Positions 8,837 to 58,363 of a stretch of 64,000 nt of DNA are shown here, piece by piece; position 1 is the stretch's first letter, and every line of letters starts with the position of its first letter. The notes under the pieces were generated by a model. It was not told the DNA's origin and did no database searches. It worked only from the letters and a program-made list of their open reading frames with translations. The DNA comes from Candidatus Bathyarchaeota archaeon (GTDB lineage Archaea > Thermoproteota > Bathyarchaeia > TCS64). The DNA lies in contig JAGTQU010000004.1 in the NCBI GenBank assembly GCA_018396695.1, positions 12,357 to 76,356 on the forward strand, in the 5' to 3' direction. The translations under genes and the position numbers were made by a program.

Positions 8837-9863
8837 CTCGTCACATTCAGAAAAGACCATCCTGAACCAGTTGAAGCAGGGCTAAAATATTTTGTGATGG
8901 GCGCCTAGCTTAACGATCATCTTCTTCGGAATGGCGTTTCTCTATGGAATGGCTGGAACCGTTAACTTCGCATAAGTATCAGCCGTAATCCGCGGTCAAC
9001 CGTTAAATCTCTGGCTACTCTTAGTCTTCACAACATTTTTGATAGGTTTCGGAATAAAAACCGCGGTCGTCTCATTACATATTTGGTTGCCTGATGCGCA
9101 TCCTGAGGCTCCAAGCTCTATCAGCGCCATGCTTTCAGGTTTGCTGATAGAAACTGGTCTCTACGCTTTAACGAGGGTTTTCTTCATAACCTTTGAACCC
9201 TCAATATTCCAGTCAACTATCGCTATTTTAGCAGCTTTAACCATGACCTTTACGAATATACTGGCTATTCTACAGAAAGATATTAAAAGAATGCTTGCCT
9301 ACTCCAGCATCTCTCAAATCGGTTACATGCTTGTGGGTCTCTCTTCTGGAAGAGTTTACGGGATCTTAGGAATGCTTTTACATGTTTTTAATCACTCTCT
9401 TATGAAGAGGCTTGCCTTCCTGAGCTCGGGTTCCATAGTCCACATGACTGGGACGAGGGACATAAATAAGCTGAAAGGTATAGGGCAGATGATGCCGTAT
9501 ACAACTTTAAGCCTCTTCATATCTTTCCTAGGGCTCGGAGGGGTACCTACGACTAACGGGTTTGTAAGTAATTCATACTCTTCGGATCATCCGCCGAGGT
9601 TCGTAACTGGTGGCTTCTAATCCTAGGTGTTCTGAATAGCGCGTTCTCGATGGGTTACTATCTCCGCTTCATGAAAACCCTTATCACCGAGTCATCTGAT
9701 GAGGTTAAAAATGTTAAGGAAGCTTCCAAGTTGATGGTCTTGGTATCCCTTATCATGGCTACTCTTCGGAATCTGGCCTGAACCGATATTGATTCATGCT
9801 GAACGCGCGTCTAATGCCCTTGTAAATGGGTTAAAAAGTTATGTTCGAGAGGCATTTTCTTGA
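8837..9863 (+). pseudogene. nuoN: Decayed complex I subunit NuoN-like gene, 5'-truncated
   Basis: EAGLKYFVMGA, HIWLPDAHPEAP, KRMLAYSSISQIGY and NSAFSMGYYLR motifs; TAG at 8906, frameshift near 8910, TAA at 8973, frameshifts near 9570 and 9765. Confidence 0.88.
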
Positions 9864-9928: not shown

Positions 9929-12229
9929 TTGACACCCCTAGAAGTCATTCTCGAGGCTCCAGGAGCATGGTTCAGCTGGATTATACCAATCATCGGTGCA
10001 CTGCTCATGCCTCTTTTAGGACGGATAAGTAACAGGGTTCGAGACTATGCTGCTGTTTTATTCGCCCTTGGAGCAGTAGTTTCAACAGCTACCCTGATCC
10101 CCAACCTCTTCTCAGGAGAGTATCCAGGTGATATTAAGATAGCGACTTGGATTGAGCTCCCTGGAGGGCATCCTATAGAAGTGGGCGTTCTAGTCGATCC
10201 TCTAAGCATATTAATATGCAATGTTGTAGCCTTCATTGCATTTTTGATCGTGGTTTACTCTATAGGCTACATGCATGGAGACCCCAATCTTACAAGATAC
10301 TGGTTCTTCTTCCTATTCTTTATAGGGAATATGCTTCTCCTAGTTCTATCCGACAACCTCCTTCAACTTCTTGTAGGCTGGGAAGGGGTGGGATTATGCA
10401 GCTATGGTCTTATAGGATATTACTACAGGGATGAGAAAGAGAGATGGCTCGGAGGGCCTCCGCCAACGAAGATGTACCCTCCCTCCCATGCTGGCATGAA
10501 AGCCTTCGTTGTGACGGGGATAGGCGACGTATTCCTCCTAGCTGCCATATTCATAATCTTCAACTATGCTGGAACCTTGAATTTTGTTGAGCTCATAGAG
10601 AAGGCGCCAGAATGGGTTGGGGCTATCTCAGCTATCCCAGGACTCTTATCAATGACGGCGATCTTTTTCCTAGGCGGTCCGATAGGTAAATCCGCTCAAT
10701 TTCCGCTCCATGAATGGTTACCTGAAGCCATGGCTGGCCCAACCTCAGTTTCTGCCTTGATACATGCTGCAACGATGGTTAAGGCAGGAGTCTATCTAGT
10801 TGCTAGAATATCCCCAATATTCTACATTGGAGCCTATAGTCTTCATATCGAGGAGGCAACAGTCTACTTCATAGCCATCGCAAGCATAGGGGCTTTCACA
10901 TCTTTTCTAGCAGCCTCACAGGCTATGGTCGCCTTGGAGCTCAAGAAGGTCTTGGCCTACTCAACCGTCAGCCAAATAGGCTACATGATGCTTGGCTTAG
11001 GCGTGTCAGGGCTCAGCGAAGGAGCTTACGTAGCCGGTCTCACTGGAGGAGTATTCCACCTGGTCAGCCACGCCCTGTTCAAGGCCGCCCTTTTCCTCTG
11101 CGCTGGCTCAGTCATACACACCGTTGAGACTATCTACATGTCGAATATGGGCGGACTGAAGAGGTACATGCCTATAACCCACATCTTAATGCTATTGGCG
11201 ACGCTCTCGCTAGCGGGCATCCCACCCCTGAGCGGCTTCTGGAGCAAGGACTCCATCTTCTTGGCATCCCTAACTGCAGGGACACCGTTGGCTCTAACGC
11301 TCCTCGCAGTGGCAGTCATAACAGCCGCTATGACCTTGTTTTACAGCATACGTTACATTAGCATGACCTTCTATGGGCCTTCGAGTAAATTCATCCAGAA
11401 TCTAGAACATGGAGGGCACGAAGAAAAAGAGCCTGGTGAGAGAAGCATCACTGGTCAGCACGGGCCCTCAACCTCAGGAGGTGATCATGGAGGATCTTTA
11501 ATAAAAAAGGAAATACAAGATGCTGAAAGTGTAGAACACCATGCACATCCAGTTCACCATATCCACGAAGCCAGTCCCGTTATGTGGGTTCCCTACGCGA
11601 TATTAGTCATTCTAGTGTTGGCTGTGGGCATCCTAGGGCTTGTAGGATTGTTCGCTCCTCGCTTCTCTCCCGAGATGTTTATCGAGAAGCAGTTTGAGAT
11701 GATGCTTGAGCATATGGAGATCCCAGTCCATATGGAGCATGTCGAGGTCTCAACTAAAATTATGGCTGTTAGCCTCTCTGCGGCCGCGTTGCTCATGGGC
11801 GGCATCTTCGGCTGGGTTTTCTACATAGCGCGAAAGATTGACTCCTGGTTATTCGTATCCAGGTCTCCTATCTTGAAAGGCGTTCACACTTTCTTATGGA
11901 ACAGGTGGTACATGAACCCCTCATACTACCGAGTGTTTGTGGATGGGTTGCTCTGGATGAAACAGCTGCTGTTTAATTGGGTTGAGACGAAGGTTATTGA
12001 TAGGATTAGCGGAGCGGTGGCAAGCGCCTTCGAAGCCGCGAGCAATCTACTATACGGAGTATTTGAAATACATGGCATGGAAAGCATCATTAATCAAGGT
12101 GTCCCCTCTGCGGTCACTGCCATTTATCATAAGGTTAAAAGAGTTCAGACAGGTTTGCTATCTTACAACATCGTTTATCTGGTCATACTCATGATCATAC
12201 TCCTGATTGGAATGTTATGGATGATGTGA
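9929..12229 (+). CDS. nuoL: NuoL/MrpA-like antiporter subunit with extended lateral helix
   Basis: GWEGVGLCSY, GKSAQFPLHEWLPEAMAGPTSVSALIHAATMV, HALFKA, GFWSKD and C-terminal QTG-TM16. Confidence 0.93.
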   Translation: MTPLEVILEAPGAWFSWIIPIIGALLMPLLGRISNRVRDYAAVLFALGAVVSTATLIPNLFSGEYPGDIKIATWIELPGGHPIEVGVLVDPLSILICNVVAFIAFLIVVYSIGYMHGDPNLTRYWFFFLFFIGNMLLLVLSDNLLQLLVGWEGVGLCSYGLIGYYYRDEKERWLGGPPPTKMYPPSHAGMKAFVVTGIGDVFLLAAIFIIFNYAGTLNFVELIEKAPEWVGAISAIPGLLSMTAIFFLGGPIGKSAQFPLHEWLPEAMAGPTSVSALIHAATMVKAGVYLVARISPIFYIGAYSLHIEEATVYFIAIASIGAFTSFLAASQAMVALELKKVLAYSTVSQIGYMMLGLGVSGLSEGAYVAGLTGGVFHLVSHALFKAALFLCAGSVIHTVETIYMSNMGGLKRYMPITHILMLLATLSLAGIPPLSGFWSKDSIFLASLTAGTPLALTLLAVAVITAAMTLFYSIRYISMTFYGPSSKFIQNLEHGGHEEKEPGERSITGQHGPSTSGGDHGGSLIKKEIQDAESVEHHAHPVHHIHEASPVMWVPYAILVILVLAVGILGLVGLFAPRFSPEMFIEKQFEMMLEHMEIPVHMEHVEVSTKIMAVSLSAAALLMGGIFGWVFYIARKIDSWLFVSRSPILKGVHTFLWNRWYMNPSYYRVFVDGLLWMKQLLFNWVETKVIDRISGAVASAFEAASNLLYGVFEIHGMESIINQGVPSAVTAIYHKVKRVQTGLLSYNIVYLVILMIILLIGMLWMM

Positions 12230-12235
12230 TGAAAT

Positions 12236-13717
12236 ATGTACGGACTAACTTGGTTAGCTCTCTTGGCTCCGGCCATATCAATGCCTATTGTCTACACCCT
12301 CGGACGTAAGCTTGGGAAAAACGTGGGATGGGTGGCGCTCATTCCCCTTTCCCTAAGTTCCCTCTTCTTCATTTACCTGATACCGGGTATTAGTAATACC
12401 TTTCTTGAGGAGTATATCGAGTGGCTGCCGGAGATCAGGTTCGGGCTTTTAGTAGATAGCCTCAGCCTACCTATCGTACTAACAGTAGCCCTCCTCTCCA
12501 CGATAATAGTCGTCTACTCCATTCCTTACATGGAGCACTCGATCCATGAACAGTATCATGGCGAGAACAAGAAAGCGCATGCAACATACTACGCTCTTTA
12601 CCTCGCTTACGCTACCAGTATGATGGGTGTTGTACTCTCGACAAATCTTTTCCAATTCTATCTCTTTTTCGAGCTTATGATAGTCCCCTCTTGGGCCATG
12701 ATAAACATATACGGGACGGGAGAGCGGGAGAAGATAGCTCTAATGTACCTGCTCTGGTCGATAGTTGGTGCCGTGCTCTTTGTCACGGGAGTTTTTACAG
12801 CTTACGCGACGGTGCACAGCTTTGAGATCTCGGATCTCGTCAAGCTTCAGGGAACACCAACAGCTGGCTTTATAGTTGTTATGATGCTCCTTGGCTTCTC
12901 CGTCAAACTGGCGACCTTTGGTCTACACATATGGTTGCCCTACGCTCACGCCGAGGCCCCCACGCCTATAAGTGCCCTCCTTAGCCCCGCGATGATAGGT
13001 CTGGCAGCCTACGGGATAGTTCGGTTTCTCGTCCCCATCCGCGGTGTCCTAGAAAGCGCAACGGTCTTGACCATGTCTTGGGGGCTAGTGACTATGCTCT
13101 ATGGCGGACTGATGGTGATGGCGCAGAATGATATTAAGCGTATGCTCGCGTATTCCAGCATTAGCCAGATGGGATACATATTCATTGGCATCGCGAGCGT
13201 CACCCCGCTAGGAGTTGCAGGGTCAATGCTCCACTACATTAGCCACGGGCTAGGGAAGGCTGTTCTATTCCTTACAGCTGGTACTATAATGCATCAAAGT
13301 GGTCACAGAGATATAAGCTCCATGGGTGGTCTTGCTGCCAAGATGCCGATATCAGCGATAGCTTTTCTAATAGGTGCCATGAACATATCCGGTATTCCCC
13401 CTACCATTGGATTTGTATCCAAGTTTTTCATCTACACCGGGGCATTTAGCCGAGGCCTACTTTCACCATCCATTGAGCTAGTGATAGCTATGGTAGCCAT
13501 CGTTTCGACAGCCCTCACAGTAGGATATACCATGTGGAACATGCGACGCATCTTCTATGGTCCCTTTCCTGAGCACTTGAAGGGGGTGAAAGAGGCCCCT
13601 GCGCTGATGACAGTACCAATGATGATCCTCTGTTTCCTCTCGATCTTACTAGGAATTTACCCTGGGCAGGTTCTAGACCCTTTAATAGAGGCGGTTAAGC
13701 AAATGATCAGTATTTAA
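12236..13717 (+). CDS. nuoM: NuoM-like antiporter subunit (copy 1)
   Basis: FYLFFEL, VKLATFGLHIWLPYAHAEAPTP and KRMLAYSSISQMGY motifs. Confidence 0.88.
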   Translation: MYGLTWLALLAPAISMPIVYTLGRKLGKNVGWVALIPLSLSSLFFIYLIPGISNTFLEEYIEWLPEIRFGLLVDSLSLPIVLTVALLSTIIVVYSIPYMEHSIHEQYHGENKKAHATYYALYLAYATSMMGVVLSTNLFQFYLFFELMIVPSWAMINIYGTGEREKIALMYLLWSIVGAVLFVTGVFTAYATVHSFEISDLVKLQGTPTAGFIVVMMLLGFSVKLATFGLHIWLPYAHAEAPTPISALLSPAMIGLAAYGIVRFLVPIRGVLESATVLTMSWGLVTMLYGGLMVMAQNDIKRMLAYSSISQMGYIFIGIASVTPLGVAGSMLHYISHGLGKAVLFLTAGTIMHQSGHRDISSMGGLAAKMPISAIAFLIGAMNISGIPPTIGFVSKFFIYTGAFSRGLLSPSIELVIAMVAIVSTALTVGYTMWNMRRIFYGPFPEHLKGVKEAPALMTVPMMILCFLSILLGIYPGQVLDPLIEAVKQMISI

Positions 13718-13718
13718 C

Positions 13719-15224
13719 ATGGTGAAAAATATGACCGGTAATATTCTGCTCTTGATGATCATGGTAACGATGGGGTCTTCCCCCATAATATACCTTTTAG
13801 GCAGAAGGATCGGAAAGATGGTCGGATGGCTATCAGTGGCGATCTTGATGTCCGTGACCGTTATATCCATCTTCTTAATGCCCATGGTGATGGAGCAAAG
13901 GATTATCGAAGAATACATGTGGACACTCCCCCCTGTAGAGTTCAAGTTCGGCCTTCTAGGTGACGGGTTGAGCCTCCCTATGCTCTTCACTTTGATATTT
14001 GTATTCTCCTTCGCCGCTGTTTACTCACTTACGTATATGGAACGGAGGATGAGAGAAAAGGACATCGAGGAAAGTAATGGGAAGTACGCCATGTTTTACA
14101 CCTTCTTCGTTCTCTATTCGGGTAGCGTAGCAGGTGCCATACTATCCACAAACATGATCCAGTACTACCTGTTCTTCGAGCTGTCCCTTGTATTCTCATG
14201 GCTACTTGTTCTGATATTTGGATATGGGAATCGTGAGAGGACATCCCTTTTGTACTTCCTGTGGACTCATGTCGGCGGGGGGTTCCTGCTGATAGGGATC
14301 CTAAGCTCCTTTTGGTCTATAGGAAGCTTCGAGATCGCTGACTTATCGAAGATAACAAACAGTTCCACAGGGTTCTGGATAGGCATAGCCATCACCCTTG
14401 GCCTCCTCGTTAAGATAGGAGGCCTCGGTTTTCATGGCTGGCTTCCAGACACATATTCCGAATCGCCAGCCCCCGTGAGTGCAGTGCTGGGGGCGACCTC
14501 GGTTCTACTCGTTACCTACTCGCTAGCTAGATTGGTCCTCCCCTTTAAGGAAGTATTGTATGGAGTTAGCTGCTGGCTTGAGCTCTGGGCGCTCCTCACA
14601 ATCCTATACGCTGGAATTATGGCGCTTGTTCAGCGAGATACGAAGCGCCTTGTCGCCTATCTTAGTATGAGCCAGATGAATTACTGTGTTCTTGGAGTCT
14701 TCACCTACGTCGAATATGGCGTTCTAGGTGCGCTCTCGTATAGCATAAGTCACGGGCTTGCAATAGCCCTCCTGTTTCTCGTAGCTGGTGCAATTCTCTA
14801 CGGAACTGGAACAAGGGACATGGGCAAGCTGGGAGGATTAGCTGAAAAGATGCCTGCTGCGATAATTGCAAGTTTGGTGGGCTTCCTAACTATAGGAGGC
14901 GTACCGCCTGCCGTCGGATTCAAGTCCAAATTCATCCTTCTCACAGGTGCCTTCTTGAGGGGTTTTCAAAACTTTGGCCTCGAGCTAATAATAGCTATTA
15001 TAGCCGGGACCCTTGCAACCGTAATAACTCTGGCCTATGAGTTTCGAGCAATATGGCGAGTCTACTACGGTAAACTACCCTCGGACATTCAGAAGATAAA
15101 AAATATTCCAGCCACTATAGCGATATCTCTTTTAATGCTGAGCGCCTTGTCGATAATATTCGGAATTTGGCCCGCTCTAATAACCAATCCACTAGAAGAG
15201 TTCATTAGACACGTATTTCATTAA
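13719..15224 (+). CDS. nuoM: NuoM-like antiporter subunit (copy 2)
   Basis: YYLFFEL, VKIGGLGFHGWLPD and KRLVAYLSMSQMNY motifs; paralog of the upstream copy. Confidence 0.85.
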   Translation: MVKNMTGNILLLMIMVTMGSSPIIYLLGRRIGKMVGWLSVAILMSVTVISIFLMPMVMEQRIIEEYMWTLPPVEFKFGLLGDGLSLPMLFTLIFVFSFAAVYSLTYMERRMREKDIEESNGKYAMFYTFFVLYSGSVAGAILSTNMIQYYLFFELSLVFSWLLVLIFGYGNRERTSLLYFLWTHVGGGFLLIGILSSFWSIGSFEIADLSKITNSSTGFWIGIAITLGLLVKIGGLGFHGWLPDTYSESPAPVSAVLGATSVLLVTYSLARLVLPFKEVLYGVSCWLELWALLTILYAGIMALVQRDTKRLVAYLSMSQMNYCVLGVFTYVEYGVLGALSYSISHGLAIALLFLVAGAILYGTGTRDMGKLGGLAEKMPAAIIASLVGFLTIGGVPPAVGFKSKFILLTGAFLRGFQNFGLELIIAIIAGTLATVITLAYEFRAIWRVYYGKLPSDIQKIKNIPATIAISLLMLSALSIIFGIWPALITNPLEEFIRHVFH

Positions 15225-15454: not shown

Positions 15455-15772
15455 ATGAGTATTGCAGTTATAGGTTCGCCACCATTTGTATCATGTTTCG
15501 AGATGATCGGAGCTGTTAGCTTCGAAGCCAACGGCTCGGAAGCTGTCACTAGAACCCTAAAACGTTTAATCGAGGAAGAAAACTTTAAGCTCATCATTAT
15601 TCCAGAGAGGTTTGCTAAGGAGACCCTGCCCTTGAGGGAGCAGGTGATGAGGAAGGGAGATATAACCCCTGTATTCACATTAATCCCTGATCTCACGATG
15701 GAGACTGGGATGCGGATAGAGGAGCTCCAAGAGATCGTTTCTCTTGCGATTGGAGCAAAATTAGAGTTGTGA
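15455..15772 (+). CDS. atpF: A/V-type ATP synthase subunit F
   Basis: IAVIG...GFxxIG-like N-terminus, about 105 aa, first gene of the operon. Confidence 0.8.
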   Translation: MSIAVIGSPPFVSCFEMIGAVSFEANGSEAVTRTLKRLIEEENFKLIIIPERFAKETLPLREQVMRKGDITPVFTLIPDLTMETGMRIEELQEIVSLAIGAKLEL

Positions 15773-15782
15773 AGGATGAGAT

Positions 15783-16109
15783 ATGGAGAGAGTGTTATCT
15801 ATCGGGGAACGGCTTCAGAGGCTACTTGAAGAAGCGGAAACGGAGTCGAAGAGGAAGATCGCTGAAGCTAGAAGAAAAGCAGACGAGATGGTCGCCAGAG
15901 CTAGGGATGATGCAGAGAACAGGCGGATCATGGCTCAAAGAGGAGATGGAATCGAGGATCTCATTAAAACTGAAGAGTATAAGGCTAAACAAGAGGCGGC
16001 TAGGATCCTTGAGAAATACAAAGAGAGGGCGGAGGCTGTAAAGAATGTTCCAAGAGAAAAAATTGAGGAGGCGATCAGCTTCGTACTAAGTGAGGTGCTT
16101 CCGAAATGA
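15783..16109 (+). CDS. atpH: A/V-type ATP synthase subunit H/G (peripheral stalk)
   Basis: Charged coiled coil EAETESKRKIAEARRKADEMVARA; operon position. Confidence 0.72.
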   Translation: MERVLSIGERLQRLLEEAETESKRKIAEARRKADEMVARARDDAENRRIMAQRGDGIEDLIKTEEYKAKQEAARILEKYKERAEAVKNVPREKIEEAISFVLSEVLPK

Positions 16110-16750
16110 GTTCCCCCTCTATAGAGTTAGAAGCTCAGCTCATAGAGAGAACTGTGGCGAAGAGGAATGAAACCTTATTGAGTGCGGAAGAGACTGCCAA
16201 GAAGATCTTGCAAGCTGCTGAAAGAGAGCGCGAGAGGATTAAAGCGGAATCAGAGAAACAGATTCTCAGCATTGTCTCATCCGAACTTCGAGCCGTTAGA
16301 GACAGGATTATTGGTAAAGCGAATCTTGAAGGAAGAAGAACCCTGATGAGTGCTAGAGAAGAAGTCCTCTCAGCCTTATACGATGAGGCGATGTTTCGCC
16401 TAGAGGCTATAGCTGAAGGACGAGATACGAAAATAAGATATGGAGAGGTCCTGAAGAAGCTGCTTATCGAAGCCATCTCAGCTATAGGCGGAGAAGAATT
16501 CATTGTATCTGTAAATAAAAGAGACTATGCTTTCCTAAAGGAGAACTTGGCTGATATCAAGGAAGAGATGAAAGAATACGTAGGGGATGTAATCATCAGG
16601 CTTGACGCTAAAACCATCGACGCTATCGGAGGCGTAATCATACGAAACCCTGAAGAGACAAAAATATATTACAACACCCTTGACGCTAGGCTTTTGAAAG
16701 CTAGGAGAAAGACCGAGTCCGAAGTCGCTAAAATTTTGGGAGTGATTTAA
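16106..16750 (+). CDS. atpE: A/V-type ATP synthase subunit E
   Basis: N-terminal coiled coil plus DAIGGVII...YNTLDARL C-terminal domain. Confidence 0.88.
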   Translation: MSSPSIELEAQLIERTVAKRNETLLSAEETAKKILQAAERERERIKAESEKQILSIVSSELRAVRDRIIGKANLEGRRTLMSAREEVLSALYDEAMFRLEAIAEGRDTKIRYGEVLKKLLIEAISAIGGEEFIVSVNKRDYAFLKENLADIKEEMKEYVGDVIIRLDAKTIDAIGGVIIRNPEETKIYYNTLDARLLKARRKTESEVAKILGVI

Positions 16751-16752
16751 AG

Positions 16753-18519
16753 ATGTCGCTGAAAGGATCAATAGATAGAATCAACGGGTCCCTCGTCGTT
16801 GCTAAATTCGAAGCAGAGCCGAAGATCGGGGACCTCGTTGAGATCGGTAGCCTTAGACTTATGGGGGAGATAGTTCGCTTAAGCGAAGATAAAGCGTATA
16901 TTCAATGCTACGAAGCTACGAGCAGCCTGAAGCCAGGTGAGCCTGTCTTAGATTCGGGGAAGCCGCTAGTCGCTGAGCTAGGTCCTGGAGTAATGGGTAC
17001 TATAGTCGACGGCATCGAACGTTCAGAATCGAAGCTATGGGAGTTGACAGGCCCCTTCGTTTCAAGAGGCACGAATATCGTTCCACTCGACAGGACAAAA
17101 AAATGGGCGTTTGAGCCTAAGGTCATGGTAGGGGGCAAGGTGCGTGGAGGAGACATCATAGGCGTCGTCCAAGAGACAGAGTCTTTCCAGCATAGGGTTC
17201 TAGTGCCCCCTGAACTTGAGGGTACTATAACTTCTATTGAAAAGGGAGACTTCACAGTTGAAGATGTTGTCGGCACCGTTGAGACTAGAACAGGATCCAT
17301 AGGCCTCCGAATGATGCAGACTTGGCCCGTGAGGCGTCCTAGACCTGTTAAGGAGAGGCTTCCATTAATGATGCCTCTGATGACTGGGCAGAGAGTCATA
17401 GACACGTTCTTCCCTGTTGCGAAAGGAGGGGCAGCCTGCATTCCAGGAGGCTTCGGCACTGGAAAAACCGTGATGCTGCAGCAGGTTAGCAAATGGGCCG
17501 ATGCTGACATAATAATCCTCATAGGATGCGGAGAAAGGGGTAACGAGATGGCTGATGTTGTCGCGCATTTCCCTGAGATATCTGATCCTAGGAGTGGACG
17601 CCTCTTGATAGAGAGGACAATTATTGTCGCTAACGTAAGTAATATGCCTGTCTCAGCTAGGGAGGCGAGCATCTACATGGGGATCACTCTTGGAGAATAT
17701 TACCGCGACATGGGATACGATGTTGCCGTGATGGCTGACTCGACATCGAGATGGGCTGAAGCCCTCAGAGACATGTCTGGTCGCCTTGAGGAGATCCCAG
17801 CTGAAAGCGGCTATCCTGCCTACCTTGCAGATAGGATTGCGGAGATCTATGAGCGGGCGGGTAGGGTTGTAACTCTCGGATCAGATCAACGTATCGGAAG
17901 TCTAACCCTTCTTGGAGCCGTTTCTCCTCCCGGCGGAGACTTCAGTGAGCCTGTTACGACGCACACTCTGAGGTTCGTCGGAACCTTCTGGGCTCTTGAC
18001 AGCGAGCTGGCTTTCAGGAGGCACTTTCCGGCAATAAACTGGCTCAGAAGCTTCACCCGGTATATGACTGTCGCATCGAAATGGTGGTCGAAGTATGAAC
18101 GTAACTGGGAGCAGATTAGGGCTAAAGCACTTGAGCTTTTGGAGGAAGCTGCCGAGATAGAGGAGACTGCCAGAATCATAGGAGAGAAGGCTATGCCTGA
18201 TGAGCAGAGGCTCATCCTGCTTCTGGCGGAGCTTTTGAGGGAAGGCTTCCTAGTTCAGAGCGCATTCCACGAGGTTGACAGGTACTGTGAGGCTGAGAAG
18301 CAGGCTGCCCTCCTCAAAGTCATCATCGACTTCTATAACCTCGCTGAGCCTATAATAAGGCAAGGGATACCTATTGAGAAGATTAGAGAGCTTGGCATAG
18401 TCTCAGAGCTTATGAGGCTTAAGGAGAGGAAAGGTTTGCAACCTATTGATGCGGCTAGAATAGAGATGAGGAAGCAGATTAGTCAACTCGCAGAGACTTA
18501 CGAGGTGAAGGTTAGATGA
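16753..18519 (+). CDS. atpA: A/V-type ATP synthase catalytic subunit A
   Basis: P-loop [16 protein letters not shown] and [11 protein letters not shown]; no intein. Confidence 0.97.
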
Positions 18520-19913
18520 CGATTGAAGAAGCAGGGGTAGTCTATAAGACGACTACCGAGATTAGAGGACCAATCCTATTTATAGAGAACATAAAAGATG
18601 TTGCCTACGACGAAGTCGTAAGGATAACTACCCCTACAGGTTATGAAATATCCGGCTCGGTACTAGATGTCTCTAAGGATTACGCTATGGTCCAGGTTTT
18701 TGGTGAAACTAGTGGCATGGATCTTAATGTTAGCGTTCGTTTCACAGGCGAGACTTTGAGGATTCCAGTATCAGATGAGTTGATAGGCCGGGTGTTCAGC
18801 GGCAGCCTTGCCCCTCTGGATGGGCTTCCACGCCCTCTAAGCACCGATCAGAGGGATGTTAACGGGGGGACTATTAATCCAGCTGCTAGGGATGTTCCAA
18901 GCGAGTTCATCCAGACGGGATTGTCGGCAATCGACGGTATGAATAGCCTTGTGAGGGGTCAGAAACTCCCGATCTTCAGCGAGTCGGGTCTGCCGCACAA
19001 CCAAGTCGCCGCTCAGATAGCCAGACAGGCGACAATCCCAGGAAAGGAAGAGGAGTTCGCCCTAGTCTTCGCTGCAATGGGGATAAAAAACGAGGAGGCT
19101 GAATTCTTCAAAGAGGAGTTCGAGAAGACAGGTGCAATCAGCAAGTCTGTTATGATACTTAACCTAGCTGACGATCCTCCGATAGAGCGCATAGTCACTC
19201 CTCGGATAGCCCAGACGATAGCAGAGTATTTGGCTTTCGACCTGGATATGCACGTCCTCACGATTATGACAGACATGACAAACTATGCTGAGGCTTTACG
19301 AAGCATTTCCATAGCCCGCGAGGAGATACCTACGAGGAAGGGTTACCCGGGATACCTATATAGTGACTTAGCCACAATCTACGAACGGGCTGGAAGAATA
19401 AAGGGTAAAAAAGGCTCAGTCACTCTAATGCCTATTCTTTCGATGCCTGGAGGAGACATCACGCATCCAGTACCAGATCTCACAGGATACATAACTGAGG
19501 GTCAGCTCATCTTACAAAGGGAGCTTGCTCTCAGAGGCATCTATCCTCCGATGAATGTTCTGCCGAGCCTCTCTAGGCTTATGAAGGACGGCATAGGGGA
19601 GAAGACTACTAGAAAGGATCATAGCGACGTCTCGAACCAGCTATACATGGCTTATGCTGAGGGTACGCGAGCCAGAGGACTTGTACGGATTGTAGGTGTT
19701 GTCGGTCTAAGTGAGAGGGAGAGGACTTGGCTCGAGTTCGCAGACCAGTTTGAGCAGAAGTTTGTGAACCAGGGGGTTTACGAAAACAGGACAATTGAGC
19801 AGACTCTGGATATTGCGTGGGATCTCCTAGCTATGCTTCCTGAGGAGGATCTTATCAGGGTTAGAGAAGCCTACATCAAAGAGTTTCATCCAAAGTATAG
19901 ACGAGCAGGATAA
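18516..19913 (+). CDS. atpB: A/V-type ATP synthase subunit B
   Basis: [20 protein letters not shown] and [14 protein letters not shown] motifs. Confidence 0.97.
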
Positions 19914-19915
19914 AA

Positions 19916-20536
19916 TTGTCCTCTATGAGCGGTGTCAGACCCACAAAGGGCTACCTCATGGATCTCAAGCGGAGGATAAGCTTCATAGAGAGGGGTACCG
20001 AGTTTCTCAAGCTCAAAAGGGATCATCTAGCTAAGGAGCTGAGCACCTCGCTTGAAGTTTTGAGAGGGAGGCGTAAGTTGCTTTTACAGAATCTGAGGGA
20101 TGCCTATGGGGCGTTGACGGCAGCATATCTCTCTCTAGGACCAACCGAGGTTAAGAGCCAGGTGAGAGCTGTTAAAAAAAGGCTTGAACTTGAGGTTCTG
20201 CCAAGGAGTGTCATGGGTGTTAGATATCCTTATGTCAAGTTTCTGTCTAAACCTCAAGTCGGCGCTGAGCTTGATGTAACGTTGAGCCATGCGGCAAAGA
20301 AGGTTCAAGAGATCCTTGAGGAGCTGATCCAGACTGCAGAGTTTGAGGCTAGAGTGGAAAGGATTGCTGATGAGCTTGGGAAGACTAATCGAAAAGTAAA
20401 CGCGCTTGAGAACACAATCATTCCAAGCTATAAGCAAGTCATAAAATTCATTGAAGATAAGCTTGATGAGGAGAGCCTTGAGGAGCTCGTGAGGGTGAAA
20501 CTCATAGGAGGTGCGTTGGCACGGCGGCGAGCGTAA
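19916..20536 (+). CDS. atpD: A/V-type ATP synthase subunit D
   Basis: RPTKGYL...LKLKRD and KTNRKVNALE motifs. Confidence 0.93.
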   Translation: MSSMSGVRPTKGYLMDLKRRISFIERGTEFLKLKRDHLAKELSTSLEVLRGRRKLLLQNLRDAYGALTAAYLSLGPTEVKSQVRAVKKRLELEVLPRSVMGVRYPYVKFLSKPQVGAELDVTLSHAAKKVQEILEELIQTAEFEARVERIADELGKTNRKVNALENTIIPSYKQVIKFIEDKLDEESLEELVRVKLIGGALARRRA

Positions 20537-20538
20537 GA

Positions 20539-21567
20539 TTGAAGTATGCCTCAGCGGTGGTGAGATGTCATGCTTTAATCTCCGAGCTTCTATCCCCTGA
20601 ACAGATGCGTCGACTAGCCGAGACTGAGAATCTCAACGCGTTTATAGCCCGGATATCTGAGACGCCTTACGGGGAGATCTCTATAGAGATTTCTGGAGAT
20701 GCTTCAATTGCTCTCGAGAAGGTGTTTTATCGCAAGTTCATAGAGAGAATCTCGAGAATCATCGATATAACCCCGAAGAAAATCGCTAGTTTTCTACAGG
20801 CCTATTACTACATGAGGTTTGAGGTTCTCAATCTTAAGCGTACACTCCGAGGAAGCTTCGGCGGCACCCCCTCTCAACAGATCCTTGAATCTCTCATACC
20901 GATTGAACCCTACCATGTAAAGGATTTCAAGGATCTTGTAGAACAGGAGACGATTGAGGAGATAATGAAACATCTCCATGGCACACCATATTCAAACCTT
21001 TCTGAAAGCCTCCCATTATATAAAGAGACGGAGGAGTTATGGCCCTTTGAGCTCAGTCTTAACAATATCTATGCCTTGACTATCCTCAAGTTGGTTGAAA
21101 GGCTCCCGTCTCCAGATAGGGCTCTCGTAAAACGGATAGTAGAGCTTGAGACCGATATCGAGAATCTTCTTATAGCTTTGAAGCAGCGAGAAATGGTTCA
21201 AGACACTCGAAGGATTCAGAGTCTATTTCCTACGACTTTCAAATTTAACATTGAAAAGATGAAGGAGTTCATCGAGTCTAAGGATATTAGACAATTTATC
21301 ATCGGATTAGGCGAACCATACACAGAGATTCTGTCCCCGATATATGAGGAGGATGTCTCTTTTGTTCGAAGCCGATTAAGACAACAGATATATAGAACGA
21401 TGAAGCGAGGGCGCTCAATGAACGACTTTGGATTTAACGTGATAATGGCCTACCTCGTTTTCTGCGAGATCGAGAAGGATGACCTAGTCGGGATGTCTTG
21501 GAGCAAAGCTCAAGGAATATCTCCTGAGAACATTCTCAAATATCTTGTTATACCCCATTTCATATGA
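20539..21567 (+). CDS. atpC: A/V-type ATP synthase subunit C (d/AC39)
   Basis: 342 aa helical protein with ETPYG, FEVLNLKRTLR and EIEKDDL motifs. Confidence 0.85.
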   Translation: MKYASAVVRCHALISELLSPEQMRRLAETENLNAFIARISETPYGEISIEISGDASIALEKVFYRKFIERISRIIDITPKKIASFLQAYYYMRFEVLNLKRTLRGSFGGTPSQQILESLIPIEPYHVKDFKDLVEQETIEEIMKHLHGTPYSNLSESLPLYKETEELWPFELSLNNIYALTILKLVERLPSPDRALVKRIVELETDIENLLIALKQREMVQDTRRIQSLFPTTFKFNIEKMKEFIESKDIRQFIIGLGEPYTEILSPIYEEDVSFVRSRLRQQIYRTMKRGRSMNDFGFNVIMAYLVFCEIEKDDLVGMSWSKAQGISPENILKYLVIPHFI

Positions 21568-21664
21568 TTCTATTCTTATAAAGGAGTCTTCGAATCTCTA
21601 AATTATTATGTATTCTAATTTTGTTTTAAAAATCAAAAATGGGTAAGGTTTTTATGGAGAGGGA

Positions 21665-22096
21665 TTATCCACTCACCATCAATATAGCTACAATCAACCC
21701 GTAGATGGCGAGTCCTTCTCCAAGAGCTACGAAAAGTAGAGACCAGATCGAGAGTTCAGGCTTCTGAGTTAACATCTCTGAGCCTGCCTTCGCCGCCACC
21801 ATGATGCACAGGGCGGCTGCGAAGCCTGCACCGATCATGGTCAATGCTCCTACCAAAGGACGCCATGCTTCGGTTGGAATCACTTCCGCTTCACCTCCGG
21901 CTACTAATAATATAATGAAAAAGATATTCAGAACCAGCATGAAAGAACCGATAACGTTGAGGAGTACCCCCCATATCGTGCTCCTTTTTTCAACCTCTGC
22001 TGAAGCATTGATTGTTGATCCATGGATGACAAGCCAAGCTGATGCTATTATGCTTGCAGTAATGGCTATTGCTCCAGGTATAAAGTCGACAGCCAT
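21665..22096 (-). CDS. atpK: A/V-type ATP synthase proteolipid subunit K/c with two extra N-terminal TM helices
   Basis: KPELSIWSLLFVALGEGLAIYGLIVAIL contains the ion-binding Glu. Confidence 0.88.
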   Translation of the reverse strand: MAVDFIPGAIAITASIIASAWLVIHGSTINASAEVEKRSTIWGVLLNVIGSFMLVLNIFFIILLVAGGEAEVIPTEAWRPLVGALTMIGAGFAAALCIMVAAKAGSEMLTQKPELSIWSLLFVALGEGLAIYGLIVAILMVSG

Positions 22097-22236
22097 GTCA
22101 ATTACCTCCTATGATTTTATTAGATTTGAAAATCTTTGTCAATGTTCATTTGCCTCCTTGTTCTCCTTAGATGCATTTCTTTGAGCATATATATTTTTCT
22201 AAATTTAAAATTTGGATATTGGATAAATGCACCAAT

Positions 22237-24429
22237 TTATTTCTGTCTCCTGATAGTGAAAGGTCTGAAGGGTACGCCTCCTCCATGGAAGAATTTGCCC
22301 ATGAACTCATAGTAAAGAAGTCTCAGAGACTGCACTGAGCTCGAGATCAATTCAAATGTCATTGCAATGACATTCATAATTACGAGACCACCTGCTCCTA
22401 GGATACCGTGTGACATTATATGCGCAGCTAAGGCTAGACTTGCATGGGCTAGAGAGAAAGCTGCGATTCGAAGGAAAGAAAAGAGGTTTGCTAGGCCTTC
22501 GACAAAGGTCATGAGAAGTCCTCCGATACCTTGACCGAAGACTTCCATGCCAAATCTTCCATGAGATATTGAAGCAATTATCGGTTCTATCATGGATAAA
22601 ATCAGTCCAGAGAGCATGATGTAAAATGTCCAATAGCTTAGAACTCCCATAAAGTTTCCATATACTGGAGATTTACTGTCAACTATGAAAGCGTATGCCG
22701 ATAAGTAAAGTCCTATGATGTACAGGATCATCCCTAGACCGTGCTCTCCTATTGCACCCCATTTATGACCTGATCTAAGCTCATTTATCGCTCCTAATGC
22801 TAATCCAACAATCATCTCTATAACAGCTATCTGAAATACTAGAAACATAAGTCTAGTCGTTTTCTCTACAGGATTTGGCATGATCGCATGGTAAGGTAGA
22901 AATTCTTCGATTAGAAAGAACGAATTATATAGTACTCCGAAAAGTATTGCGGAGATTCCCATAGGTATGAAAAGGGTGCCGAGCTTAGACATCATTCCTC
23001 GATTATATTTTTGAGTAAGTATTAAGCCTAAAACCAGTAGTATCGCTCCTTGACCGATATCTCCAAACATAAGACCGAACTGGAAGCTGAAGAAGAAGAT
23101 AGAAATGTAGGCAGGGTTGACCTCACGGGCTGAAGGCCATCCCCTTAACGTCGTCAGAGTCCACGCCGGCTTCAGAAATTTAGGCTTTATATCTGGCGGG
23201 GGGGTTGGCACGTTATGATCTTCATGTGATATGTCTTCAAATTGTACAAAAAGCTTCTCCCCTATCTTAGATTCTACTTCTATTATTATTTTCTGCAAGG
23301 TAGGGATATTGTATTCAGGCACCCACCCTTGTAAAATACTTATTACTTTGGTTCTTAAAACGATGGCTTGAGGATTAGATAAAATTCTGAGAATCTCGTG
23401 CATATAGCTAATCCTGGATAAAACCTTACTTTGGTGCTCCTTTAATTCATCGAGTTTCTCGTTATATTTAGCCTCTGTCTTCTTCAACTGTTCATCGTAA
23501 CTTTGTTTTAGCTTCTCTATAGCTCTCTTATGCTCCTCCTCTAGGTGTAAGATTTCTTCATCAAACTCATCTATTTTAGAATAGAGGGCTTTATCGGCCT
23601 CTTTTCTAGCTTGTTCCTCCTTTAATCTGTTTAGCTCTTCCTGATACTTCTTTATAGTTTCTCTCCTCTTCTCAGGATCCAGAACTAGCAAGATGTCGCT
23701 AGGATTCAGAACATCGAAGATATCCTTCACTTCGAAGACTAAGAAAAGAGCATCAACCCACTTCTTACCCTTTTCTGATCCAAAAACAAATATAATATTT
23801 TCATTGCTCGATATTTCAACCGTTTTTGAGAATATGTCAGGGTTCCTCGCCAAATATTCTTGGAGTCGTTCAGTACTCTCCTTCTTGGCTACACCTGCTG
23901 CGAAACAACTCTTTAACTGTTCAGGTTCTAACGCTCTAACGGATTCGAGCCTTGCCTTCAATCCTTCATATCTTTCAGCTAACCTCGTTTTCTCTCCTAG
24001 TATATCTTGTTTCTCTTTTTCAAGAGCCGATGTTTGCTCCTCGACGGCTTTTTGAAGTTCTTCAATTATCAGTTTAGTCTCTCTGTCATAACTATCTTTA
24101 ACCTCTTTGAACTGCGCGATGAGATGGTTCAATTCATTAATGGAATGCTCTACTTCTTCTCTAGGATTCAACGAAAATCTCTTTAGATCCTCGACAATTA
24201 CAGATGATGGTTTAAAATCCTCTCCTATTAATTCTACAAGTTTTTGATAACGTGTTTGAAGCTCGTTGAAAAGTGCACCATAATTCTCTATTTTTTCCTC
24301 CCCCTTCCTAAGATTATCGAATTCTGGATCGCTCACCTCTTTCAACTGAGTGATGCTGGCTTTGCCTAAACTCTCTAAAAGGATGCTTTCATATTCGGGA
24401 GGGGTAATTATTGTAACTTTTTTCATCAA
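22237..24429 (-). CDS. atpI: A/V-type ATP synthase subunit I/a
   Basis: FGLMFGDIGQG, SFLRIAAFSLAH (essential Arg) and LRLLYYEFMGKFF motifs. Confidence 0.93.
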   Translation of the reverse strand: MMKKVTIITPPEYESILLESLGKASITQLKEVSDPEFDNLRKGEEKIENYGALFNELQTRYQKLVELIGEDFKPSSVIVEDLKRFSLNPREEVEHSINELNHLIAQFKEVKDSYDRETKLIIEELQKAVEEQTSALEKEKQDILGEKTRLAERYEGLKARLESVRALEPEQLKSCFAAGVAKKESTERLQEYLARNPDIFSKTVEISSNENIIFVFGSEKGKKWVDALFLVFEVKDIFDVLNPSDILLVLDPEKRRETIKKYQEELNRLKEEQARKEADKALYSKIDEFDEEILHLEEEHKRAIEKLKQSYDEQLKKTEAKYNEKLDELKEHQSKVLSRISYMHEILRILSNPQAIVLRTKVISILQGWVPEYNIPTLQKIIIEVESKIGEKLFVQFEDISHEDHNVPTPPPDIKPKFLKPAWTLTTLRGWPSAREVNPAYISIFFFSFQFGLMFGDIGQGAILLVLGLILTQKYNRGMMSKLGTLFIPMGISAILFGVLYNSFFLIEEFLPYHAIMPNPVEKTTRLMFLVFQIAVIEMIVGLALGAINELRSGHKWGAIGEHGLGMILYIIGLYLSAYAFIVDSKSPVYGNFMGVLSYWTFYIMLSGLILSMIEPIIASISHGRFGMEVFGQGIGGLLMTFVEGLANLFSFLRIAAFSLAHASLALAAHIMSHGILGAGGLVIMNVIAMTFELISSSVQSLRLLYYEFMGKFFHGGGVPFRPFTIRRQK

Positions 24430-49698: not shown

Positions 49699-50595
49699 TT
49701 GATCCTTCAAGAGCTATTAAACCCGATCTTGCAGCCTTTCATGGACTCGACAACAGACTATGATTCTGCTGAGTTTGTTTTATTCGGAGCCCCCTTAGAT
49801 TTTACTGCTTCTCATCGAAGCGGTTCAAGATTTGCCCCAAATGTGATAAGACAAGAAAGTCAATATTTAGAGTCCTATGATTTAAGAACTGGTCTAGACT
49901 GGAATAATGTTTCCGTGGCAGACCTCGGTGACATAAATAGACTCGAGGATGTCGAGGAGGCGCTCAGCGCCATAGAATCGGTTATAGGGCTAGTCAAGAA
50001 TTCTGGGAAAATCCCTTTAATGATGGGGGGAGAGCATACTGTTACACTCGGGTCGTTAAGGGCTCTCAAACCAGAACTGGTTATCGCATTCGACGCCCAC
50101 CTAGATCTGAGAGACGAATTATTTGATCGAAAGCTCTCTCATGGAACGTTCATGAAACGAGCCTTTGAAGAGCTAGATAATAGAGTCATATTTATCGGGG
50201 GGAGAGCCTTTTCCAAGGAAGAGATTGAGATCCTCAAGGCACATCCCGAAAACTTCATTTTGATCCCTCCGCGTGAATTGCGGAATAATCGAAACACGGT
50301 TTTCAATGACTTGAAGAACGAAGTGGCGAACGCATCGTCTGTTTATATCAGCATCGATATGGATGTGTTAGATCCTACCTATGCTCCAGCTGTCGGAAAC
50401 CCTTCACCAAACGGAATATCTCTGAGATTGCTATCAGACCTTTTAGACTCTGTGTTGGGGGAGAATACTTTCGGGGTTGATATCACCGAGATAACCCCAT
50501 ATTATGATTCAGGGCGTACAGCAATCGTTGGCGCATATCTCATCATTCAAATAATCTATGGGCTTAAGTACGCACGTTCGAAGTCGAGAAGATAA
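49699..50595 (+). CDS. speB: Agmatinase (ureohydrolase family)
   Basis: GGEHTVT, FDAHLD and SIDMDVLDP...AVGNP motifs. Confidence 0.9.
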   Translation: MILQELLNPILQPFMDSTTDYDSAEFVLFGAPLDFTASHRSGSRFAPNVIRQESQYLESYDLRTGLDWNNVSVADLGDINRLEDVEEALSAIESVIGLVKNSGKIPLMMGGEHTVTLGSLRALKPELVIAFDAHLDLRDELFDRKLSHGTFMKRAFEELDNRVIFIGGRAFSKEEIEILKAHPENFILIPPRELRNNRNTVFNDLKNEVANASSVYISIDMDVLDPTYAPAVGNPSPNGISLRLLSDLLDSVLGENTFGVDITEITPYYDSGRTAIVGAYLIIQIIYGLKYARSKSRR

Positions 50596-50620
50596 TATAT
50601 GTCTTAATATTCTAATTTAC

Positions 50621-56698: not shown

Positions 56699-58357
56699 AT
56701 GTCAGCTGCTCCTCAGATGACCGGAACACCGGTTCTAATTTTGAAAGAAGGTTCCTCTCGAGAGAGGGGTAGGGGTGCCCAGAGGAATAATATCGAAGCC
56801 GCTCTTGCCATTGCCGAGGCCTTGAAAACGTCTCTTGGACCTAAGGGAATGGATAAAATGCTTGTAGATAGCTTTGGAGACGTAACTATAACAAGTGATG
56901 GACGTACTATACTTGACGAGATGGATGTGCAACATCCAGCTGCGAAGATGATGGTTGAGGTTTCGAAGACTCAGGACCAGGAGGTAGGTGATGGTACAAC
57001 ATCGGTAGTTATCATAGCTGGAGAACTTCTCAATCTGGCTCAGGATTTGATGGATAAGCAGATACATCCTACCGTTATCATCGATGGTTATAAGGAAGCT
57101 GCTGAAAAGGCTTTAGAGCATTTAGAAAAGATAGCCATCAAGGTCAACCCCAAGGATAAGCAGTATTTGCGAAAAATCGCTATGACATCTATGGCGAGTA
57201 AACTGGTGACGGGGAATAAAGAGCAGCTTGCTGATATAACGGTTGATGCGATACTCCATGTTGTGCAAGAGGATGAGGGGAAACTCAAAGTCGATCTCGA
57301 CGATATAATGATCGAGAAAAAGCCAGGCGAATCGTTAACAGAAACGAAGCTTATCAAGGGAATCATCATTGATAAAGAGATTATTCATCCTAAGATGCCG
57401 CGTAGGGTTGAAAACGCTAAGATCGCCCTCATCAACAGGGCCTTCGAGGTAAAGAAAACCGAGTTTGACGCGAAAATAAACATAGAGTCTCCTGAAGAGA
57501 TCGAAGCCTATCTACAGCAGGAGGAAGAGATGTTGAAGTCGATGGTCGATAAAGTAAAGAATGTTGGGGCAACAATAGTCTTCTGCCAGAAAGGAATTGA
57601 TGATGTGGCTGCACACTTCTTGGCTAGAGAGGGTATACTCGCAGTTAAACAGGTTAAAGAATCTGACATGGAGAAGCTCGCTAAAGCGACTGAGGGAAAG
57701 ATAAGCACCAACTTCGAGGATTTGAAGCCTTCTGATCTTGGTGAGGCTGGTCTCGTCGAGGAGAGGAAGATCGGCGACGACAAGATGGTCTTCGTGGAGA
57801 ACTGCAAGAACCCGAAGGCTGTGGCGATTTTGATTAGGGGTGGAACTGAACGAATCGTCGACGAGGCTGAAAGATCTATACACGATGCTCTATCCGTGGT
57901 GAAAGATGTGGTTCTTGAGCCAAAAATAGTTGCAGGCGGAGGAGCGCCTGAAATCGAAGTAGCAAAGGCGGTTAGAGGCAAGGCTATAGGTCAGCCTGGT
58001 AGAGGTCAGCTAGCCCTCGAGAAATTTGCAGACGCGATCGAAGTGATACCGACAACCCTTGCGGAAAACGCTGGTCTGGATCCGATAGATATCTTGTCGG
58101 AGATTAAGGCTCGGCATGAGAAGGGAGAAATCTGGGTAGGCGTTGACGTCATAGGAGGGAGGGTCGAAGATTTGCAGAAGCTTGATGTCCTTGAACCTTT
58201 AGCTGTTAAGAAGCAGATCATCAAATCTGCGACGGAAGCCGCTACAATGCTACTTAAGATCGATGATGTGATAGCTGCTGCAAAAATGAAGGAGCCTAAG
58301 CCTCCAAGTGGCGGACCAGGTGGTCCTGAAGGAATGGGAGGGATGCCTCCCTATTAG
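56699..58357 (+). CDS. ths: Thermosome (group II chaperonin) subunit 1
   Basis: [16 protein letters not shown] and IVAGGGAPE; GGM-type tail. Confidence 0.97.
57716..57808 (+). repeat. 93-bp tract identical to 59393-59485 (thermosome paralogs)
   Basis: GAGGATTTGAAGCCTTCT...GAGAACTGCAAG compared base by base in both genes. Confidence 0.92.
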
Positions 58358-58363
58358 CTCGAG

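Follow-up and report, generated by a model that had tools for sequence, protein, structure and literature searches.

A remnant 2M-type complex I locus, of probable independent origin, in a Bathyarchaeota archaeon whose NuoL carries one extra 27-residue unit in its lateral helix

Introduction

The 2M form of complex I, in which an extra NuoM goes together with a lengthened helix on NuoL, was reportedly described by Chadwick, Hemp, Fischer & Orphan in 2018 (ISME J 12:2668), who are said to have proposed that it pumps an extra proton. In this paper, we are concerned with one nuoL gene and its neighbors in a stretch of 64,000 nucleotides from a Candidatus Bathyarchaeota archaeon (assembly GCA_018396695.1, contig JAGTQU010000004.1, positions 12,357 to 76,356 of the forward strand), which we call the window and number from its own first letter. 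A first-pass annotation, made from the letters alone, had claimed that the lateral helix (HL) of this NuoL is longer than usual by about the width of one subunit, that the lengthening came from an internal duplication, and that the locus was once a 2M complex, possibly of independent origin.

How does this locus compare with what has been described? In the published papers, the HL insertion of 2M NuoL is given as 26 amino acids (PMC9040806, PMC6606698), the original authors are credited by papers that cite them with having already proposed convergent 2M origins (PMC9040806, PMC6606698, PMC7117926, PMC7300363), the 2M enzymes of Thaumarchaeota/Nitrososphaeria are placed in Chadwick's “clade 2” (PMC7300363), and the gene order in Chloroflexi is L-M1-M2-N (PMC7117926). 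The literature also has HL joining the seventh transmembrane (TM) helices, TM7, of adjacent antiporter-like subunits (PMC7419157), and describes a Complex_I_3 in “Ca. Manganitrophaceae” with five pumping subunits and a 26-residue HL insertion, along with cases in that family of a long HL without the extra gene, read by the authors as “in transition” (PMC9040806). For Bathyarchaeia, Loh, Herve & Brune (2021, PMC7886697) describe Hfo, an Fpo-like [NiFe] hydrogenase of 11 subunits. Within the literature we searched (the coverage of which excluded Chadwick et al. 2018), we found no link between Bathyarchaeia and 2M complexes and no account of any complex that has at least three M subunits.

We think it probable, and have argued from several directions below, that the window holds the remnant of a 2M-type locus that arose independently in Bathyarchaeia, that its NuoL bears one extra HL unit, and that its L, M1 and M2 genes are still under constraint.

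Results

The lateral helix of NuoL is longer by one unit

The gene and the parts of its C-terminal helix are laid out as follows.

9929 to 12229, + strand: nuoL, 766 amino acids, intact
11903 to 11983, + strand: HL head unit, amino acids 659–685, RWYMNPSYYRVFVDGLLWMKQLLFNWV; found in all NuoLs compared
11984 to 12064, + strand: HL extra unit, amino acids 686–712, ETKVIDRISGAVASAFEAASNLLYGVF, 27 residues; the sole middle unit of the window NuoL
12065 to 12154, + strand: HL terminal unit, amino acids 713–742, ending in QTG
12155 to 12229, + strand: TM16 anchor helix and stop codon, hydrophobic C-terminus LLSYNIVYLVILMIILLIGMLWMM

The stretch from RWY through QTG (11903–12154, + strand, 84 codons) places 78 translated residues between the two motifs, against 46 in E. 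coli and 49–51 in single-M Bathyarchaeia, and so the first-pass claim of 78 residues where about 50 are typical is correct. The answer is the same when the helix is measured as an anchor distance, that is, from the W of RWY to the Q or E of QTG or ENG: the window NuoL stands at 80, E. coli NuoL at 48, and single-M relatives from Bathyarchaeia, Nezhaarchaeota and Methanomethylicia at 51–53. The excess over these relatives is 27 residues, or one amphipathic unit, and the window NuoL has the lengthening of some 26 residues by which 2M complex I is recognized.

The relatives make it clear that this number is no accident. Among 120 homologues, the anchor distances were 53 (n = 1), 79 (1), 80 (51), 104 (2), 107 (23) and 134 (6), with 36 of the 120 left out of the tally because they did not match the strict pattern for the first anchor; with looser anchors, and with the NuoLs of fetched loci pooled with the homologues, the counts became 92 at 80, 59 at 107, 10 at 134 and 7 at 53. 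In other words, helix lengths in the relatives change by exactly 27 residues, through 53, 80, 107 and 134, which is far from what free insertion and deletion would give, and the length is not random. Among 150 cluster representatives drawn from far more distant NuoLs, the distances also bunch, at about 51–53, 75–80, 103–106 and 130, and some of the long forms there bear a motif of the WFDxxVVDG type.

Laid out in blocks of 27 residues, the HLs of the homologues are made of three kinds of unit: a head beginning RWYMNP, zero to three middle units that each open E-x-x-hydrophobic-hydrophobic-D, and a terminal unit of the form E..VID.GLN.GVP....QTG, which is the counterpart of the E. coli segment KRDPLNSMMNIP...ENG and in which E713, P726, Q740 and G742 are invariant across 82 sequences. 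A standard HL consists of a head and a terminal unit, about 50–53 residues, to which the window NuoL adds one unit to reach 80. That unit, amino acids 686–712, is missing from relatives at distance 51–53 and present as a single copy in those at 80, and it is amphipathic (hydrophobic moment 0.42 against 0.17 ± 0.08 for shuffled sequences, p = 0.003). An AlphaFold2 model of the window NuoL, built on an alignment of 82 homologues (predicted local distance difference test score, pLDDT, 79; predicted template modeling score 0.80), puts helices at residues 664–690 and 695–765 with a break at 691–694, where the E-x-x-h-h-D motif lies; apart from that break, the extra unit is helical in the model.

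Two NuoM genes and a broken nuoN

Two intact genes of the NuoM type follow nuoL, and the remains of a third antiporter-like gene precede it.

12236 to 13717, + strand: nuoM1, 493 amino acids, intact; TIGR01972 at 308.5 bits, cutoff 263.8
13719 to 15224, + strand: nuoM2, 501 amino acids, intact, divergent; best family TIGR01972 at 240.5 bits, under the 263.8 cutoff
8837 to 9860, + strand: nuoN pseudogene (NuoN is the subunit linking NuoK to M), located by tblastn with the intact NuoN of relatives L003 and L004

The relatives, numbered here with an L, comprise the contigs that carry close homologues together with 80 genome loci, all treated by one pipeline of open reading frame (ORF) calling and BLAST. 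M1 and M2 both fall inside the M clade and outside the N and L clades, so that the second NuoM expected of 2M complex I is present: window M1 belongs to an M1 clade restricted to two-M loci, and window M2 belongs to a monophyletic Bathyarchaeia M2 clade (100/100 bootstraps for each). All N sequences, E. coli NuoN included, are likewise monophyletic (100/100).

What is left of nuoN covers N residues ~158–501 of 505, at 60–69% identity to intact N, in the pieces 8837–8905, 8907–9569, 9572–9766 and 9759–9860, and it is interrupted by one in-frame stop (in the piece 8907–9569, after ..NFA) and three frame changes. Its 5' ~157 codons are gone; on that side come a gene for an MFS transporter and one for a ClC channel, the latter ending at 8825. 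A 193-amino-acid ORF within the remnant (9039–9620) matches only positions 89–269 of the 294 in Pfam Proton_antipo_M. No nuoA-K gene turned up in the 64 kb, either by BLAST with the L003 subunits or by Pfam on the larger ORFs, so the other core subunits of a 2M enzyme (NuoA-D, H-K and N) are not encoded intact in the window; they are in L003, L005, L009, L011 and others.

These complete relatives tell us what the window is a part of. The typical order in Bathyarchaeia is nuoA-B-C-D-H-I-J1-J2-K-N-L-M, sometimes with M2, followed by the ATPase operon (with B-C-D-H-I on the opposite strand in some lineages), and full operons with N-L-M1-M2, that is, four antiporter-like genes, occur in L003, L005, L009, L011, L022 and others. 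The window holds the distal part (L, M1 and M2) of the operon that is complete in L003, L009 and L011. Two M genes, a NuoN pseudogene and full four-antiporter operons in relatives together support the idea that this was a 2M complex.

That the long protein is a NuoL is also well founded. It scores 502.5 bits against NCBIfam TIGR01974 (cutoff 407.5), within the NuoL/ND5/NdhF family, contains Proton_antipo_N and Proton_antipo_M, and has a core of 14 TM helices followed by TM15, the lateral helix and TM16; its best phmmer matches in the PDB are NuoL/ND5/NdhF chains throughout, as are all of the top 40 Foldseek matches (TM-score 0.75–0.81 on the target). Among these sequence and fold matches, no chain is described as belonging to a 2M complex. 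One further feature of the window protein lies outside the helix extension.

11417 to 11551, + strand: His/Gly-rich disordered loop of NuoL, amino acids 497–541, between TM14 and TM15; AlphaFold2 pLDDT below 50

Its counterpart in the family is only a short “ELEHHGHHxHEAP.” The length of the TM14–TM15 loop seems to lie behind much of the spread in size among NuoLs of equal helix length.

Helix class and number of M genes in the relatives

Where the stretch downstream of M is resolved, the loci divide as follows, each line giving the helix class, its anchor distance and the numbers of two-M and one-M loci.

Standard helix (48–58); two M, 0 loci; one M, 12 loci
Plus one unit (78–80); two M, 25 loci; one M, 13 loci
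Plus two units (104–107); two M, 1 locus; one M, 9 loci
Plus three units (134); two M, 0 loci; one M, 1 locus

Every two-M locus has an extended helix (26/26) and no standard-helix locus has a second M (0/12; Fisher p = 0.0005, without phylogenetic correction), and all 23 of the Bathyarchaeia M1+M2 loci are at 80 (one of them, L024, was read by the pattern as 85 and set by hand to 80). The rule runs in one direction: a second M gene means an extended helix, but a locus can have an extended helix and no second M in cis, so that helix length alone is an unreliable signature of M gene number. Four loci at distance 51 with one M (L030, L032, L042 and L066) fall inside a set of distance-80 lineages on the NuoL tree, a position consistent with joint loss of the extra unit and the second M in that clade.

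The single M of the extended-helix, one-M loci forms a clade of its own, “Ms” (100/100), apart from M1 and M2, and the extra units in these loci are conserved at 52%, against 57% and 60% for the flanking units, and therefore are not relics. NuoLs at distance 104–107 beside a single M, with the ATPase next, are found in L008, L012, L013, L014, L019, L025, L031, L048 and L053; those at 134, likewise with a single M and the ATPase next, are found in L007, L018, L055 and L089. The literature that we searched holds no description of NuoL helices with two or three extra units beside a single M. One M product may fill several positions, further subunits may be encoded elsewhere, or the helix may not be a strict ruler.

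Selection and decay at the locus

A locus that has lost its nuoN might be expected to be on its way out. Yet L, M1 and M2, over 5.3 kb, have no lesions, whereas the 1.0-kb remnant of N has four; decay at an equal rate would predict ~20 lesions in the three genes, and as there are none, selection would seem to have preserved them after N was lost. The TM5 glutamate, the TM7 and TM12 lysines and the conserved histidine are retained in L, M1 and M2; NuoL has both the TM8 and the TM11 histidines, and M2 has the histidine of SHGL. The ratio of nonsynonymous to synonymous change (dN/dS) of NuoL against L001 is at most 0.075, an upper bound only, as synonymous sites are saturated. No RNA run was found from which expression could be judged, and the sequence occurs only in the DNA contigs of a hot-spring metagenome.

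The closest relative, L001/L002, has a NuoL 75% identical to that of the window, no more of N than its final 43 codons (L001 9795–9920), and a single M gene without M2. We considered whether the L001 M might be the M1 of the window after deletion of M2, and this was ruled out: the L001 M sits in the Ms clade and is 52% identical to M1, and therefore the two loci differ by cassette (M1+M2 in one, Ms in the other) and not by a simple deletion. The window and L001 share the genes further upstream, for a PALP enzyme, a translin-like protein and an aldo-keto reductase. The identity that persists in the N remnant, when synonymous sites against L001 are already saturated, suggests that the loss of N in the window is recent and an event apart from the larger deletion seen in L001.

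Loci with nuoL-M(-M2)-ATPase, and with neither nuoN, nuoA-K nor a vestige of N in the 1.7–10 kb upstream, were found in L034, L035, L043, L044 and L025, which suggests that in Bathyarchaeia it is split operons or orphan distal modules, rather than decay, that recur. Two metagenome-assembled genomes (MAGs) have two operons of the complex I type each, L040 and L059 in CAYUTB01 and L045 and L050 in JAOZIG01; in both, one operon carries M1+M2 and the other a single Ms, and both NuoL distances are 80. With L-M1-M2 intact, split operons recurring and some MAGs carrying two operons, it is plausible that N and the input module for the window's L-M1-M2 are encoded in trans.

The neighborhood

Downstream, the nuo genes are followed, after 231 nucleotides and in the same orientation, by the genes of an ATP synthase, a synteny kept in nearly all of the related Bathyarchaeia loci.

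15455 to 24429: A-type ATP synthase genes, F, G/H, E, A, B, D and C on the + strand (to 21567), c and I on the − strand; Pfam ATP-synt_F and V-ATPase_G_2, with A, B, D and C by translation

Further off in the window lie other genes.

50558 to 53191, + strand: family B DNA polymerase
56699 to 60028, + strand: two tandem thermosome genes
60856 to 63111, − strand: NrdD, anaerobic ribonucleotide reductase

NrdD would suit an anaerobic lifestyle.

Discussion

What would one more unit in a helix be good for? An antiporter-like subunit is roughly 40 Å wide, and 27 helical residues at a rise of 1.5 Å would come to ~40 Å, enough to span one added subunit. We propose that the lengthened helix would clamp four subunits (N, two M and L) rather than three, with the extra unit lying along the extra subunit and one more proton perhaps being pumped, and that the window's L, M1 and M2 still combine, most likely, with an N and an input module whose genes lie elsewhere.

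The second M and the helix unit of Bathyarchaeia are, on the tree and gene-order evidence, best regarded as having a separate origin, and here, the first-pass suggestion of independence is favored. Gene order is K-N-L-M1-M2 in the window's relatives and K-M-L-M-N in the loci of Nitrosopumilales, Thaumarchaeota and Promethearchaeota; the monophyletic Bathyarchaeia M2 joins the thaumarchaeal-type M genes in only 0–3 of 100 neighbor-joining bootstraps; of the two thaumarchaeal-type M genes, the one that follows L clusters with E. coli NuoM (100/100), and the one beside K stands as a clade of its own; and the thaumarchaeal-type NuoLs sit in another region of the NuoL tree, with standard-length lineages in between.

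Several of our own results pull the other way, and we would rather set them out together than leave them scattered. The trees are neighbor-joining trees on identity distances, and in them, the best partner of Bathyarchaeia M2, a weak one, is Bathyarchaeia M1 (40/100). The AlphaFold2 confidence in HL is only 54–72, although that is as expected for a helix modeled as part of a single chain, without its M1 and M2 partners. The first-pass annotation had held that equal helix length in single-M relatives would refute it, and 13 such loci are equal in length and another 10 longer: 23 extended-helix loci (13 at 78–80, nine at 104–107 and one at 134) carry one M with the ATPase operon next to it, the window's closest relatives L001/L002 among them. 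In L086 (Promethearchaeota, JBHLMG010000005.1), the order is K-M-L-M-N and the distance is ~105, yet the M genes number just two. And within the window itself, there is no sign of a duplication: the middle unit matches the terminal one at 3 of 27 positions (p = 0.34 by shuffling, ungapped score), the family profiles of the two are no closer (z = 1.0, p = 0.16), a scan of registers along the helix gave no signal of duplication, and Tandem Repeats Finder reported no repeat at the helix region in the window DNA.

The claim that the helix is two similar units made by internal duplication, then, was right about the 27-residue register and was not borne out on the similarity, which is no greater than chance. 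The duplication is plain enough in the relatives. L013 and L007 have recent 81-nucleotide tandem repeats inside the helix region, at 86% and 81% identity, neighboring units are near-identical in P0021, P0015 and P0004, and two types of unit, FDKIS and YDPxLNxGIP, have been duplicated in separate lineages, so that helix units there were plainly gained by 81-nucleotide tandem duplication. The extra unit of the window NuoL is an old one.

Might all of this have a duller explanation? The one that deserves most attention, although we consider it unlikely, is that the extra unit is a freely expandable repeat typical of the lineage, a tolerated surface helix or a binding site for some partner that is not a fourth antiporter-like subunit, and that its co-occurrence with two M genes is a matter of history and not of structure. 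The single-M loci with helices of 80, 107 and 134 are what one would then expect, as is L086 with two extra units and only one extra M gene, and tandem duplication of 81 nucleotides would by itself yield steps of 27. But both unit types were duplicated independently and always in steps of 27, with no intermediate lengths; the units in single-M loci are about as well conserved as their flanks; M1+M2 loci are at 80 without exception, and no standard helix goes with two M genes; and the clade that returned to distance 51 has one M gene.

It is more improbable still, in our judgment, that the whole locus is a dead remnant, with L, M1 and M2 functionless and simply not yet degraded, in which case the length of the helix would have no present meaning. 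The state of nuoN, the want of nuoA-K in 64 kb, and a closest relative that has lost more (all but 43 codons of N, and M2) would fit such an end, but the lack of any stop or frameshift in the 5.3 kb, the intact catalytic residues, and the low dN/dS against L001 do not, and the recurrence of L-M(-M2)-ATPase without upstream nuo genes (L034, L035, L043 and L044, and L025) points to split operons, with two operons present in some MAGs. Finally, the protein might have been an MrpA-type subunit of an Mrp/Mbh-like antiporter, its long C-terminus a legacy of that architecture; the antiporter-like subunits are, after all, homologous, MrpA models reach 310 bits, and Mrp structures are among the weaker PDB matches. 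This we regard as effectively refuted. The MrpA models, at 228–310 bits, fall far below their cutoffs of 920–1117 whereas TIGR01974 is above its own, the ORF stops after TM16 without an MrpB-like domain, the relatives carry the NuoL orthologue within nuoA-N operons, and no genes for small Mrp subunits lie nearby.

We return, then, to a remnant 2M-type locus, and we allow ourselves one further thought, which is a tentative one that we would not press. The Bathyarchaeia HL may be a modular ruler, made of a head, a terminal unit and zero to three extra units of 27 residues, in which the E-x-x-h-h-D motif of each unit would be the contact for one subunit and one M product may fill several positions, giving “3M” and “4M” arms. 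Five or six antiporter-like subunits would raise the ratio of ions to electrons. The longest helices pair with a single, unspecialized M of the Ms clade, and M1+M2 is locked to 80; the window's M1 and M2 could thus be a subfunctionalized version of a single M that once served at several positions, and L-M1-M2, kept intact after the loss of nuoN, may form a movable distal module, docking on an N and an input encoded elsewhere.

What that input was can be approached through the D subunit of relatives, the window itself having none. In two-M loci with resolved flanks, the D subunit has both [NiFe] motifs, L1 and L2, in eight and neither in five, and in the nearest complete two-M relatives (L003, L009, L011 and L082), it is without them, so that the window's lost input module was probably, by analogy with these relatives, of the Nuo/Fpo type. 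A NuoD homologue with both motifs occurs in L005, L007, L017, L022, L033, L036, L040, L046, L048, L052, L055 and L063, and in L005 and L007, a gene for the HycI protease adjoins the cluster. All twelve are hydrogenases of the Hfo type, and several have an additional M along with a longer NuoL; judging by gene content, two-M arms on hydrogenase-type modules exist in Bathyarchaeia.

Why should any of this matter? Bathyarchaeia are anaerobes, abundant in sediments and hot springs, that live near the thermodynamic limit. If we are right, they would be a further independent lineage with four-pump enzymes of the complex I type, and in part of them the four-pump arm would sit on an input module resembling a [NiFe] hydrogenase. 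Helix lengths of 53, 80, 107 and 134 would form a natural series for testing a passive clamp against a ruler of subunit number. For the genome of the window, what we have found chiefly records a decaying copy of the complex whose distal module would still be under selection; the more surprising material is in the relatives, with their quantized helices of up to three extra units beside a single M gene.

Comparison with known systems

Set beside the described systems, the window is closest to 2M complex I, with which it shares a second NuoM-type gene and an HL insertion of ~26–27 residues; the absence of NuoEFG is common to its archaeal relatives. It differs in that it is incomplete, with nuoN a pseudogene and no nuoA-K in 64 kb, that its M2 belongs to a separate clade, and that the order in its relatives is K-N-L-M1-M2, where the thaumarchaeal 2M loci have K-M-L-M-N and Chloroflexi L-M1-M2-N (PMC7117926). 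The thaumarchaeal 2M loci (L076 and L083), along with L086 of Promethearchaeota, are likewise archaeal, without NuoEFG, and possess four antiporter-like genes, and the thaumarchaeal NuoL distance, at 78, is similar, but the insert has a bacterial-like WFDxxVVDG motif, unlike that of Bathyarchaeia; neither the gene order nor the orthology of the extra M that would place a locus in their clade is seen in the window or its relatives. Hfo comes from the same phylum and has the same nuo/fpo-like operon, and its description gives 11 subunits with no second M; a 12-subunit form with a second M and a long NuoL, as in several of the loci here, is not described there (PMC7886697). Complex_I_3 also combines a long HL with added pump subunits, but it is bacterial, its NuoL is replaced by MrpD-like subunits, and the sequence is unrelated. 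The locus is probably an independent member of the known 2M kind.

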